Shown piece by piece: positions 28,594 to 32,667 of a stretch of 64,000 bases of DNA. The notes under the pieces were generated by a model. That model saw only the letters and a program-made list of their open reading frames with translations, was not told where the DNA came from and did no database searches. Where the stretch lies: IMG/VR virus record IMGVR_UViG_3300022920_000004, positions 1 to 64,000 of that record, one strand, 5' to 3'. Position 1 is the first letter of the stretch. Each line of letters starts with the position of its first letter. Both the position numbers and the translations under genes were made by a program. The stretch comes from a virus.

Positions 28594-29454
28594 TTAAAAA
28601 ATATATCTTATTTGATTCCAAGGTATTATACTATTATGTAATTTTTTAAAAGAATCAACATATTTATTTTTATTTTGCCATTTATATCTTAAATTTTCAG
28701 AACCATAAGAACTGACTTTAGATTCTTGTTTATCAGGTTGCCACAATAATTCTTCAGCTTCAGGATTATGGATTAAATTATATTCATGCATTTTTTTATT
28801 ATGTGTTAATAATATAACTTCTGATAATACATAAGGTTTAATTTCATCTAATACAATATCATTTACTAAATTAAATAATTCTTCATATAATTTTTTAGTA
28901 TGAGGTAAAATAATAACTGGGCTAAAATTTATATGTACATCATAACCAGCTTTATAAAAAGTATTAATAGCTTTAATTCTATCAATAATTAAGCTAGTAT
29001 TAGGTTCTAATATATTAGATAATTCTTGGGGCATTAAACTAAATCTAATTCTTATTTTACGTAAAGGATTAAAATTTAATAAATTATTATTAACATTTTT
29101 AGTTGCAAATGTTCCAAAAACATTATCATTATTTTTAAAAAAATTAAATATTTTTGTCCAATCATGATATTTAGCATGTAATGCAAAATCTTCATTACAA
29201 GATAAATCATAAGTCCAATATTTATTATGAGTTTGATTAGGTTTTTTAACACCTAATGTATTTACATGTTCATAAATACTATTAATTATATCATCTGTAT
29301 TTGTAGCAATTGTAAGACCTTTATTTACATGCCTTCTCATATAACAATAAGCACATTTATATAAACAACCGTAACCAAAAGATGGTGTTATATAATCACT
29401 ACTTCTTCCACTATATCTAATTTTTAATGATTTTCTTATTACACTTTTAATCAT
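28594..29454 (-). CDS. Spore photoproduct lyase-like radical SAM protein
   Basis: CxxxCxxC (GCLYKCAYCY), SCNED corresponding to the SplB H-donor Cys region, FATK, RIRFSLMP and NFSPVI. Confidence 0.85.
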   Translation of the reverse strand: MIKSVIRKSLKIRYSGRSSDYITPSFGYGCLYKCAYCYMRRHVNKGLTIATNTDDIINSIYEHVNTLGVKKPNQTHNKYWTYDLSCNEDFALHAKYHDWTKIFNFFKNNDNVFGTFATKNVNNNLLNFNPLRKIRIRFSLMPQELSNILEPNTSLIIDRIKAINTFYKAGYDVHINFSPVIILPHTKKLYEELFNLVNDIVLDEIKPYVLSEVILLTHNKKMHEYNLIHNPEAEELLWQPDKQESKVSSYGSENLRYKWQNKNKYVDSFKKLHNSIIPWNQIRYIF

Positions 29455-29516: not shown

Positions 29517-29630
29517 CTATTTTAACATTAACATTATAAAATACCCTAATGCTAATAATATAATTTCTATACTCATAGATATTCCTATAAACATAGAAAT
29601 TCCTCTTAAAAAATTTGATTTATTTTTCAT
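29517..29630 (-). CDS. Small hydrophobic membrane peptide (37 aa)
   Basis: Manual translation MKNKSNFLRGISMFIGISMSIEIIILALGYFIMLMLK; TAATG-coupled to the NAMPT-like stop. Confidence 0.45.
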   Translation of the reverse strand: MKNKSNFLRGISMFIGISMSIEIILLALGYFIMLMLK

Positions 29631-31231
29631 TATAAATTATTTATTTTATTTCTAATTTCAGTTAAAGTAATTTGATTATAAAATTTACCATCTTCAAATA
29701 TTACTTTTAAAAAACCTTGGTTTTCTTCATCCCAAGAAACTTGATCTTTTAATAAATAAGAATATTCATCTATAGCATCAGAAGTTTTTTCAACTTTTAA
29801 TAAACCTTTAGCTGATTTTTTAGTACCATCATCTGTAATAGGATCTTTGAAAATATTAATACCTTCTGTAAATCCAATTCTTCCATTATTTGATAAATGA
29901 GTAACTTCTTGATAAGTAGATTTCATTGCAAAACCAAATGTATCTCTAGTATTAAATTGATAAGTAAAACTACCAATACCAGCAACCCAATTTGTAGATG
30001 CAAATCCTTTAGCTTCTAATCTAGTATTAATTTCTTCAAATCTTTCTAAATTAATAGCATCTCCATAAATCATTCTAATTGATGGATGTAATACTTTATA
30101 ACCTTGGGCATTGGTTGTCCCACCAAATATATCCCAAAGTAATTCTATTACTCCTTTATGTTTAGATTTTAAACCTTCGCCTCCATAATCAACTCTTTCA
30201 CGTTTAGTTAATCCTCTACCACAAATAATATCAGCAGGATTACCACTGTCAGGTCTAATTACAACTGGTCCACCAGTTCTAGACATAATTTGTTCTTTCA
30301 ACTGTGGTAAAACTTCTGTAATTAATTTCCATAAATCAAAACCATCAGATACTATACCTAAAGGTCCTGTTGGAAATCTTTCAATTAAAGTTTTAACATA
30401 ATTATAATCAGTACTTTCTTTATGATAATAAGCACATTGAATAGAATGTTCTGTTGCTGGTATTGAACCAACTACAAATTCTTTTTCATCATAATACTCT
30501 CTAGCGGCATGAATTACAGGTAAACTATCTGAACCTAAAAATGATACAGCATGTCCTAAACCACTACTCATTGTAGCATATAAAGAATCCATACCTCTCA
30601 TAGAAAAATCGTGACAACCATATTGACTATGAAAATCATTACCTTTATCAGTTTTAGCAATCCATTTGTCATTAAGCTTTTTAAACTCATAACCTAATGT
30701 TGCAGATGTCATTGGTTTCCATAATAAATTAGAAATCATTGTTTCTAAGAAATTAGTTACCCAAGCAAATTCTGGTAATGTATTGTAAATTGTTAATACA
30801 GGAACTCCCATTGGGCAAAATTCACCTTCTGGTAAAGCTTTTACTTTAATAGGTAAATATCCTAAATCCCATAATGCTTCAATTTTAGATACATCATAAT
30901 CTGTATTAGAATACATTGAATATTCTTTTTTAATATTACCACATATTTCATTTTTAAGACTAAGAACAGCTTTTTCATATTCTTTATCCAATGAAATATC
31001 AGCAATAGTTTGTAAGTAATCTGTCATAAAGAAGTTTTCTTTAAAATTACTAACAATTTCTCTAATTGTCATTTGTGTTCCAAACACTAATACTTCATTA
31101 CACCCTTTAGGAGCGTATTTATTGCTCCTAGGTGTAAAGTTACTATAAATCATAGATGTTCCTTCAGGAGACATCTTTCCATGGTGAATTTTATACCCAT
31201 CCACACATAAAAAAGGGTTTATATTTTTCAT
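29630..31231 (-). CDS. Nicotinamide phosphoribosyltransferase-like (NAMPT/NadV family; likely NARP1 Namat)
   Basis: DGYK.HH, HDFSMRG, SIPATEHS, VSDGFD, VIRPDSG, IYGDAI, TRDTFGFAMK and KKSAKG motifs. Confidence 0.92.
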   Translation of the reverse strand: MKNINPFLCVDGYKIHHGKMSPEGTSMIYSNFTPRSNKYAPKGCNEVLVFGTQMTIREIVSNFKENFFMTDYLQTIADISLDKEYEKAVLSLKNEICGNIKKEYSMYSNTDYDVSKIEALWDLGYLPIKVKALPEGEFCPMGVPVLTIYNTLPEFAWVTNFLETMISNLLWKPMTSATLGYEFKKLNDKWIAKTDKGNDFHSQYGCHDFSMRGMDSLYATMSSGLGHAVSFLGSDSLPVIHAAREYYDEKEFVVGSIPATEHSIQCAYYHKESTDYNYVKTLIERFPTGPLGIVSDGFDLWKLITEVLPQLKEQIMSRTGGPVVIRPDSGNPADIICGRGLTKRERVDYGGEGLKSKHKGVIELLWDIFGGTTNAQGYKVLHPSIRMIYGDAINLERFEEINTRLEAKGFASTNWVAGIGSFTYQFNTRDTFGFAMKSTYQEVTHLSNNGRIGFTEGINIFKDPITDDGTKKSAKGLLKVEKTSDAIDEYSYLLKDQVSWDEENQGFLKVIFEDGKFYNQITLTEIRNKINNL

Positions 31232-31710
31232 TTTTTATATTTTTTTAAATAATTAATCGCACAATTTAATGCTTCTATATCATCATTAAATTGTCCTATA
31301 CCTTTATTACAACTACTGCATAATAAACCTCTTACTTCGCCTGTGTTATGACAGTGATCTACTGATAATACTTTATTTCTATAATGAGTTTCTTGCTTTG
31401 AACATATTGCACAAACAAAGTTGTGTTCTTCAGCCATTGTATTATATTCTTCAAGTGTTATTCCATAACTTCTTTTTAAATGAGCTCTTCTATTTATAAG
31501 AACTCCTTTTGGAGAATTATAATAAGCATCTCGTTTATCTTTTTTTCTTAGATTACGAGCTTTAGCTTTTTCAGGATTATTAGAATGTATTTCTCTAGCT
31601 CTTGCATTTTTACACTCTTTACAAGTATTTCTTCTACCATCAGGTCTTTGATTATCAATACCAAATTCTTCTACGTATTTATTGTCGCCACAAATATTAC
31701 ATTTTTTCAT
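31228..31710 (-). mobile_element. Free-standing homing endonuclease, endonuclease VII (His-Me finger) family
   Basis: N-terminal CxxC...CxxC; YGITLEEY..M; CAIC...LSVDHCHNTGEVRGLLCSSCNKGIG. Its stop overlaps the NAMPT ATG (ATGA). Confidence 0.88.
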
Positions 31711-31713
31711 ACT

Positions 31714-31745
31714 GCAATATACAACAAATAATTCATAATACCAAA
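31714..31745 (-). promoter_or_regulatory. Putative leaderless promoter for the homing endonuclease
   Basis: Minus strand TTTGGT-N18-TATATTGC-AGT-ATG. Confidence 0.5.
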
Positions 31746-31766
31746 TAAAATGATGGTTATTTTAAA

Positions 31767-31811
31767 TTATTTATAGCCATCAACAGCTAAAAATGGATTA
31801 ATTTGTTTCAT
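31767..31811 (-). pseudogene. Orphan 14-codon NAMPT 5' stub (MKQINPFLAVDGYK*)
   Basis: 12/14 aa identical to the NAMPT N-terminus MKNINPFLCVDGYK; starts 1 nt after the PRS-like stop. Confidence 0.9.
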
Positions 31812-31812
31812 A

Positions 31813-32667
31813 TTAAAATAATTTTATAATTTCTAAATTGTTTGGGGTATAACCAACTTTACCATCAACCCATATACCTGTTTTTTCACAACTATATTTA
31901 TCAAACTTACTATTAGTATTAAAAACCTTATCAAAGTAATTAGTTACAGGGTCTTTACCTAAATTCTGTACAGTCATATGACTTACAGCTAAGTATAATT
32001 TACCACAATTTCTTTCTCTAAGTAGTTTAGATAAACCTTTAAATGTTCCTCCATATACAGATATATCATCTATAATAAGAATATCTTTACCCTTAAAATC
32101 TTGTCTATCAACTAATTGTTTCATTCTTGTTTCAGAATGTCCAGTCAATCTAGCCTTACTAGCAGAATAGGTTTCTCCTTTCCAACCAATCTTATCACAA
32201 AGTTTCATTAAAGGTTTAAAACCTCCTGCATCTGAAGACATTAAAATTAAATCTTCAGTATTAAATGTAATATTATCAAAAACTTCTTTAACAAACTCAC
32301 TGTTATCAATAATTTCTACATTATCCATTAAAGCTTCTACAACTTCAGGATTATGTGGATGAAATATTTTAAAATCAGCATTCATAGAGTTTAATCTTTT
32401 TAATACTATTTTTAAACCACTACTTTGATTATCATTAAATCTTCTATCTGCTTGAGCATCTAATAGATTAGGTATTGTAATTAATGGTTCTAAACCATTA
32501 TGATTATACACATCTATAATTTGTTCTAAATGATGTAAATCTTCATAAGTATTAGTTTTAAAAGTAAATTTCATAGGATAATTTCCTCCTGTATCCCAAC
32601 TACTTTCTTCTACAATATTTTCTAATACTACATAACTTGTTCCATCTGGATATTTATTTATTTTCAT
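31813..32667 (-). CDS. Ribose-phosphate pyrophosphokinase-like (PRS family; likely NARP1 Adps)
   Basis: KYPDG, QADRRF, HPH, SSDAGG, PRTase loop ILIIDDISVYGGTF and LAVSH. Confidence 0.88.
   Translation of the reverse strand: MKINKYPDGTSYVVLENIVEESSWDTGGNYPMKFTFKTNTYEDLHHLEQIIDVYNHNGLEPLITIPNLLDAQADRRFNDNQSSGLKIVLKRLNSMNADFKIFHPHNPEVVEALMDNVEIIDNSEFVKEVFDNITFNTEDLILMSSDAGGFKPLMKLCDKIGWKGETYSASKARLTGHSETRMKQLVDRQDFKGKDILIIDDISVYGGTFKGLSKLLRERNCGKLYLAVSHMTVQNLGKDPVTNYFDKVFNTNSKFDKYSCEKTGIWVDGKVGYTPNNLEIIKLF

Follow-up and report, generated by a model that had tools for sequence, protein, structure and literature searches.

A mobile endonuclease cassette that very probably displaces and resupplies the start of a NAMPT-like phage gene

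How can a mobile endonuclease gene occupy the conserved start of a coding sequence and leave the interrupted gene whole? Homing endonucleases are generally held to have safe access to coding sequence only within introns or inteins, and otherwise to settle between genes. The question is raised by a locus of the IMG/VR virus record IMGVR_UViG_3300022920_000004, a 99-kb genome of which positions 1–64,000 were analysed (this stretch of 64,000 nucleotides (nt) is referred to as the window). Here the open reading frame (ORF) of a prs-like gene ends with TAA at 31815–31813, and 1 nt beyond lies the ATG of a stub of 14 codons that resembles the start of a NAMPT-like NAD-salvage gene. A gene for an Endo VII-domain endonuclease follows, and the full NAMPT-like ORF, opening with MKNINPFLCVDGYK, overlaps with its ATG the TGA of the endonuclease gene as ATGA. 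The distance from the ATG of the stub to that of the NAMPT-like gene is exactly 580 nt. Stub and new start agree in 12 of 14 residues and in 33 of 42 nt, and five of the identical residues are respelled (ATT/ATA, AAT/AAC, CCA/CCT, GTT/GTG, GGC/GGG). A first-pass annotation, made from the letters alone, had described the layout, the coupling, the spacing and the respelled codons in these terms; all of this was confirmed base for base, and every coordinate was right. We consider it highly probable that a mobile endonuclease cassette has entered the 5′ end of the NAMPT-like gene, that the gene was kept whole without intron, intein or ribosome hopping, and that the old start was left behind as a dead stub.

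Uninvaded alleles of the site exist in near-identical seawater populations. Contigs of X3, X4 and X9, seawater DNA runs from three different 2024 studies, were mapped onto the window. Contigs of these runs connect position 31174 to 31771 and omit 596 nt, the joint being made by 16 nt that read G ATT TTT CAT CAT TTA on the gene strand, and the resulting junction protein reads ...DGYK IFHHL MSP... The stub part of these contigs agrees with the window at 41/41 positions, the end of prs is free of mismatches, and the body of NAMPT is about 98.5% identical. This is a presence/absence polymorphism at a precise site in near-identical genomes, with flanks that are 98.5–100% identical. The left end of the cassette is the last base of codon 14 and its right end is the boundary between codons 19 and 20, so that the native codons 15–19 (IFHHL) are changed to IHHGK in the invaded gene. 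Compared with the native 16 nt and the ATG of codon 20, the cassette differs at 7 bases and changes 4 residues over codons 14–20. The first-pass annotation had placed the break right after the DGYK motif; the left junction is indeed there, but the replaced tract reaches codon 19 and not codon 14.

An empty site is also present in the TARA Oceans scaffold L091. It lacks the endonuclease, and the same prs-like gene is followed after 1 nt by MKQINPFLAVDGYKIFHH..., the whole gene starting with MKQINPFLAVDGYKIFHHLMSP. It had been predicted that endonuclease-free relatives would run from prs straight into a full NAMPT gene, and in L091 the sequence of the stub continues as IFHHLMSP. The stub shares 38/42 nt with the true start of L091, and the bases upstream of the stub share 27/30. 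The new start of the window is less similar to L091, with 30/42 nt identical over the same codons, 9/18 over codons 15–20 and 39/60 over codons 1–20, while from codon 21 on the identity is 80–93%. Considering the match of the stub to the L091 start and to the endonuclease-free seawater contigs, the similarity between stub and new start is not due to chance. Our data demonstrate that the stub is the native start of the gene and that the new start is non-native. The empty sites in L091 and in the near-identical seawater populations support the earlier view that the endonuclease was inserted in the NAMPT-like gene and supplies a replacement start. Further empty sites (L011 and L059) belong to the lineage of L010 described below.

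The same two forms are seen among 120 protein relatives of NAMPT. The two closest ones, P0002 and P0003 (80% identity), differ exactly at the gene start. P0002 opens like the full gene of the window (MKNINPFLCVDGYKIHHGKMSP) and has the same 22-residue N-terminus, whereas P0003 opens like the stub and continues (MKQINPFLAVDGYKIFHHLMSP), its N-terminus being identical to the stub over 14 amino acids. The remaining NAMPT clade carries AVDGYKIFHHLMSP, and CVDGYKIHHGKMSP occurs in the window and P0002 only. An independent RNA library from 2025 (run X2) likewise contains the invaded form, although its contigs cannot demonstrate transcription. These contigs, and other mapped ones that extend from the gene body to 31174, stop exactly there, as expected where invaded and uninvaded forms coexist. 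An assembly artefact was also considered, and is ruled out by a second independent sample and a complete isolate genome. Megablast of the locus against the phage collection revealed no close relative, and the closest NAMPT within IMG/VR is just 58% identical. Degenerate DNA patterns for the new start and the junction hit the contig of L010 or nothing. The coordinates of the features are collected in Table 1.

Table 1. Features of the invaded locus (positions refer to the window).
Feature	Position	Strand	Basis
prs-like (PRPP-synthetase/Adps-like) gene, left flank of the insertion	32667–31813	minus	Pfam Pribosyltran, E 2.9e-8; PHROG 619 ribose-phosphate pyrophosphokinase, E 3e-35
Stub MKQINPFLAVDGYK, displaced native NAMPT codons 1–14 plus TAA	31811–31767	minus	Identity to L091, seawater contigs and P0003
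Whole cassette, 596 nt, in place of 16 native nt (G ATT TTT CAT CAT TTA)	31175–31770	minus	Junction contigs from runs X3, X4 and X9
Cassette leader, 56 nt, from the last sense codon of the stub to the endonuclease ATG	31711–31766	minus	Read from the sequence
Free-standing endonuclease gene, 160 amino acids	31710–31228	minus	Pfam PF02945 Endonuclease_7, E 8e-26; PHROG 2633 endonuclease VII
Replacement start MKNINPFLCVDGYKIHHGK, cassette-borne NAMPT codons 1–19	31231–31175	minus	Divergence from L091; endonuclease-free contigs; N-terminus of P0002
Complete NAMPT/Namat-like gene, functional hybrid ORF, 533 amino acids	31231–29630	minus	Pfam PF04095 NAPRTase, E 2.5e-30

The arrangement had been proposed to work without splicing, and nothing indicates a group I intron: Rfam gave no family match in 30800–32200 at E ≤ 1, and just 56 nt lie outside ORFs. 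Neither a ribozyme core nor in-frame Hint/intein blocks are present, the endonuclease ORF being separate with its own stop and the stub ending in TAA. At the new start the gene begins with an ATG of its own and encodes the entire N-terminus, the Asp and Tyr of the substrate pocket included. Splicing or ribosomal bypass as a way of joining the stub to the gene is unsupported, considering the Rfam result, the few bases outside ORFs, the TAA after the stub and the complete independent start. The promoter that had been suggested upstream of the endonuclease gene did not hold up. The sequence TTGGTA-17-TATATT (31744–31716) is one of 6 matches in the region, compared to 6.4 expected from shuffles.

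Homing endonucleases typically insert at codons for indispensable residues, and the position of this insertion is in agreement with such behaviour. Among solved structures, the Namat of SPbetaL1 is closest to the NAMPT-like protein (9W5X, E 7e-121), while human NAMPT is matched at about 1e-54. D11 and Y13 of the DGYK motif in the window align with Asp13′ and Tyr15′ of Namat, two residues that line its nicotinamide pocket (PMC12774641). The insertion point is just 3′ of the codons for these indispensable residues, and this explains why a replacement start must restore DGYK. Together, the prs-like and the NAMPT-like gene (29630–32667) look like a reconstitution module for nicotinamide adenine dinucleotide (NAD+) of the NARP1 type (Adps and Namat). 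Pairs of this kind rebuild NAD+ against NAD-depleting bacterial defences (PMC12774641). Close relatives of the NAMPT-like protein (P0004, P0006, P0008 and others; 540–608 amino acids) have variable insertions of up to about 75 residues at one surface position (columns 357–450 of alignment A1, residues ~340–360 of the window protein), and due to these insertions the best local alignments span about 63% of the query. A spore-photoproduct-lyase-like radical SAM protein of 286 amino acids is encoded two genes downstream of NAMPT (28594–29454, minus strand; Pfam SPL, E 2.7e-22).

The endonuclease has an intact catalytic motif. It reads ...CAIC...SVDHCHNTGEVRGLLCSSCNKGIG... and corresponds to CX2C...DHCH...R...CX2C-N, with all elements being present. 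The match to Endonuclease_7 covers residues 77–157 of 160 and is located C-terminally; the N-terminal half contains CNIC...CKEC. Members of the DHHRN/F-CphI-like family share DH(D)H between CX2-4C and CX2C, an Arg and a distal Asn (D40, H41, H43, R54 and N62 in T4 Endo VII; Fang et al. 2018, PMC6083498), and the motif is C-terminal in the endonuclease clade and N-terminal in the resolvase clade (PMC6083498). Based on these residues and on the C-terminal placement, the protein is predicted to be an F-CphI-like Endo VII-motif (DHHRN) homing endonuclease. It can be aligned over its full length, with 35% identity, to a homologue that is encoded next to psbA (L086). Homologues adjoin psbA in L086 and S-B05, as F-CphI does, and also sit between T7-like virion genes. 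Since near-identical genomes lack the gene, the endonuclease is dispensable.

A search for the layout of stub, endonuclease gene and duplicated start, as proposed by the first-pass annotation, found it again in other phages. In five other phage lineages a homologue of the endonuclease gene is the immediate 5′ neighbour of NAMPT. L079, L162 and L157 were identified when the endonuclease was compared by tblastn with all retrieved NAMPT loci (45%, 41% and 31% identity to the enzyme of the window, respectively). L174, a contig of 299 kb, was newly found by a scan with gapped patterns (DHCH...DGYK), which also re-found L157 and L079. The fifth lineage is represented by the cultured Leptolyngbya phage Lbo-JY46 (L173, PP438436.1). 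One element family occupies the homologous site of diverged host genes, with a remnant in L010. Other matches of the gapped patterns (L177 and L178, and L184 in bacterial genomes) were discarded as false positives, as there is no NAMPT gene.

Lbo-JY46 gave the best endonuclease match (48%) and also the best NAMPT match in the collection of isolated phages; relatives of Lbo-JY46 were not found in the phage collection. The stub of this phage is intact, with MSFKINSLYLADGYKK and a stop codon, and is followed by a leader of 56 nt, the gene of the endonuclease XAI97302.1, and then a NAMPT gene opening with MSFKINSLYWVDGYKTSHKKM (new start MSFKINSLYWVDGYK). Where stub and new start encode the same residue, 8 of 12 codons differ in spelling, with AGT changed to TCA and AGC to TCC among them. 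In L079 the stub has decayed to GAT TGA TAC AAA (D-stop-YK). The distance from DGYK of the stub to the catalytic DHCH is near-constant, with −434 nt in the window, −432 nt in Lbo-JY46 and −429 nt in L079. The stub of L174 is decayed and ridden with indels, reading MQITKK... versus MSVITKQ... in the gene. L162 and L157 show a plain order of prs, endonuclease and NAMPT genes with no space for a stub. The left junction is at the same codon, right after DGYK or up to one codon further (+0–1 codon), in the window, Lbo-JY46 and L010, and the genes upstream differ. The upstream neighbour is prs in the window and ORF79 in Lbo-JY46, and small ORFs are found there in L010, L079 and L174.

In Lbo-JY46, a row of units between 2157 and 2990 contains the codons for (M)SFKIN four times. 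These codons open ORF79 (2157), close it (ESFKIN and stop, 2379–2396), open the stub (2400) and open NAMPT (2970), with two spellings that alternate (AGT TTT AAA ATW AAY and TCA TTT AAA ATW AAT). ORF79 has no PHROG match. These repeats may go back to an older nested insertion or to unequal crossover at the same gene start.

L010 carries a stub (MRINPLLLTDGYKT...) and a new start (MKNINPLLLTDGYKTAHHNM) just 82 nt apart, and the endonuclease ORF is lost. The spacer consists of a leader motif in common with L079 (TATATCCATATRTTTAT) that is joined to the final bases of the endonuclease gene (TTTRAAAAAACATAAA). In its relatives L011 and L059 the stub-type start is the real start, which continues TGHHQQ, compared to TAHHNM in L010, and here too the replaced tract ends near codon 20. 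The first-pass annotation had held that relatives showing the stub without any endonuclease would speak against an insertion. L010 fits this description, yet it retains the cassette leader and the 3′ end of the endonuclease gene, and is therefore a derivative that lost the endonuclease. About 30 nt, from the last codons of the stub into the leader (…CTTTWARTT.ATATCCATATRTTTAT), are common to L010 (3946–4000) and L079 (3446–3496). In L010 this stretch is fused to the last ~20 nt of the endonuclease gene, as if the entire ORF had been lost by a deletion at microhomology.

The leaders have short patches in common, TGTTGTATNTT.GYAGTAT being found in the window and Lbo-JY46 and ATAWCCATNNNTTTAT in the window, L010 and L079. 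A hairpin predicted for the leader of the window is no better than those of shuffled sequences (z −1.37; 19 of 200 shuffles fold as well). The leader patch CATCATTT was also considered as a relic of native codons 17–19, with a stub that once extended to codon 19; this idea was dropped, since the patch resembles the leaders of L010 and L079.

A possible way for the cassette to spread can be inferred from these alleles. The enzyme would cut the uninvaded allele in or next to TAT AAG ATT TTT CAT CAT TTA ATG (about codons 14–20), 3′ of the codons for the Asp and Tyr of the pocket. The break would be repaired from an invaded genome, with prs and the stub providing the left homology and the NAMPT body the right homology, and repair would copy leader, endonuclease gene and new start into the recipient. 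An invaded genome should be immune, since its site is interrupted at the stub and has another spelling in the new copy. The arrangement probably originated from an intergenic order of prs, endonuclease and NAMPT as in L162 and L157. A one-sided transfer without homology in the left flank would then have left the start of the recipient in place. The stub would be a relic that decays once the element is fixed, though it could still be used as a short homology arm.

It is conceivable, and we put it forward tentatively as the less probable part of our interpretation, that the stub and the leader, together with the endonuclease gene and the replacement start, make up one portable and self-contained unit of homing, with the stub as working left homology arm. 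The constant junction, the lineage-specific stubs and the differing upstream genes would fit repeated homing with the stub as left homology, and a portable unit would explain this combination in the window, Lbo-JY46, L010, L079 and L174. If true, such a unit could jump between unrelated phages that have only the first codons of NAMPT/Namat in common. Endonucleases would then have a generally usable way into coding sequence that needs no splicing and that shuffles alleles of an anti-defence gene.

Several observations weigh against the interpretation outlined here. The endonuclease-free contigs of X3, X4 and X9 are short (86–110 nt), the shorter side having 29 nt. The same three runs contain a second joint, which connects window positions 31146–31225 to 31806–31835, omits 580 nt and places an IHHGK-type start directly behind prs without an endonuclease; this new-type start has 9 mismatches to the window in 80 positions. 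Contigs of this type may stem from a donor lineage, or may have lost the endonuclease by recombination between the repeats of stub and new start, in which case the allele would presumably be resistant to cleavage. In a tree of 15 endonuclease proteins there is no starred branch, and the tree speaks neither for nor against a single lineage specialised on NAMPT. The excess of respelled codons is modest, with 7/13 and 8/15 of the same-residue codons in the new start compared to 26% and 34% in the gene bodies, and the respelling can be explained by a more distant donor, without selection for recoding. Finally, the stub is decayed (L079, L174) or absent (L162, L157) in four of the six loci that bear the endonuclease. 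It is therefore not maintained by selection and not a conserved functional part.

The last point leads to the alternative that survives best, although we regard it as unlikely. An ordinary intergenic endonuclease could have left a one-off scar of illegitimate (one-sided, microhomology) repair, so that the stub plays no role in mobility and the layout does not propagate as a unit. Stubs that decay, together with the plain gene order of L162 and L157, are what such a scar would predict, and one-sided homing with illegitimate junctions is known in T4 (Parker, Belisle and Belfort 1999, as cited in PMC2988022). Independent scars should, however, differ on the donor side, and L010 and L079 have their ~30 nt of junction and leader in common. 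Nor would scars be expected to place the left junction at the same codon in the window, Lbo-JY46 and L010, or to keep the distance from stub to catalytic motif near-constant in three lineages. Within the population to which the window belongs, genomes with and without the unit differ by a single, sharply bounded insertion/deletion that comprises all of it.

A tandem duplication of the gene start in situ, followed by divergence, with an endonuclease that landed later between the copies or is unrelated to them, appears very improbable. It would account for the likeness of the copies within a genome at the protein level (12/14, 13/15 and 12/13 residues). Genomes that are about 98.5% identical lack the whole unit, and their start equals the stub while the new start differs at 9/42 nt and by IHHGK versus IFHHL, so there was no time for divergence in situ. 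Moreover, duplication and endonuclease gene are exactly coextensive in the polymorphism, unrelated phages again combine the two with homologous endonucleases, and the duplicated start of L010 still bears traces of the endonuclease leader and 3′ end. That the protein is instead a Holliday-junction resolvase with a housekeeping role in the phage is scarcely credible: although its gene is the sole Endo VII gene, and also the sole one among Endo VII, HNH, HNH_3 and GIY-YIG types, within the 99-kb genome, and the family carries the label 'endonuclease VII' in databases, near-identical genomes lack the gene, the motif of the protein is C-terminal behind a zinc-finger-like N-terminus, unlike the N-terminal motif of resolvases (PMC6083498), and close homologues are in classic homing positions beside psbA and between T7-like virion genes.

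An endonuclease cassette that brings its own gene start, the reading we prefer, would be a third route by which phages admit such elements to coding sequence: the element resupplies the start of the gene, and the alleles from before and after the insertion still circulate in the sea. The cassette makes hybrid alleles of a gene that is likely to act in counter-defence, and may move them between phages. The presence of the layout in the cultured phage Lbo-JY46, with Leptolyngbya boryana as host, makes the mechanism directly testable. For annotation, short orphan ORFs that copy the start of a neighbour beside a nuclease gene should be regarded as insertion scars and not as new genes.

Literature searches revealed no published phage case of a displaced start stub together with a replacement start, and the known systems each share part of the design. 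The MobA element of T4-like phages, made up of mobA and the N-terminal extension of gene 60, deletes 55–75 nt of a topoisomerase gene and carries a diverged copy, HomR (67–81% DNA identity), with the cut site (bioRxiv 10.1101/2022.08.31.505936). Like MobA, the element in the window places a free-standing endonuclease within the coding sequence of a phage, involves neither intron nor intein, and has its own diverged copy of the target; in both cases uninvaded near-identical relatives exist, and some MobA copies have lost the endonuclease ('hit and run'), as has L010. MobA, however, splits the topoisomerase into two functional polypeptides and involves a ribosomal bypass of 50 nt, whereas the insertion in the window is near the 5′ end, the whole N-terminus is resupplied with its ATG, and a dead stub of 14 codons remains without any translational recoding. 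The nuclease subfamily and the target gene also differ. A 2011 PNAS paper by Bonocora et al. is said to deal with the MobA element as well.

F-CphI of cyanophage S-PM2 shares with our enzyme the catalytic family, the domain order and the free-standing position beside a conserved gene that is the presumed target (PMC6083498). Spread by break repair, with co-conversion of the flanks conferring immunity, would be a further feature in common with F-CphI and with SegF, SegG and MobE (PMC2988022). Unlike the element in the window, F-CphI is encoded downstream of psbA and has the insertion site of an intron as its target, and the Seg and Mob genes of T4 (SegF, SegG, MobE) are intergenic and have no duplicated piece of a gene. 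In the window the co-converted tract would include the start codon, and the start of the recipient survives as a stub.

Closest in design are endonuclease ORFs of fungal mitochondria, which bring a diverged piece of the host gene, make a hybrid gene and leave the original segment as a fragment. We take Allomyces atp6 to be an example of such an element. These cases are organellar, mostly of the LAGLIDADG or GIY-YIG type, and usually at the 3′ end of the gene or linked to an intron, whereas the element in the window belongs to a phage, encodes an Endo VII-motif enzyme, and is located at the 5′ end with tight ATGA coupling. The design itself has precedents in MobA and in the fungal elements; new are the NAMPT/Namat-like target and the enzyme family, and the case includes natural empty sites and a cultured example.

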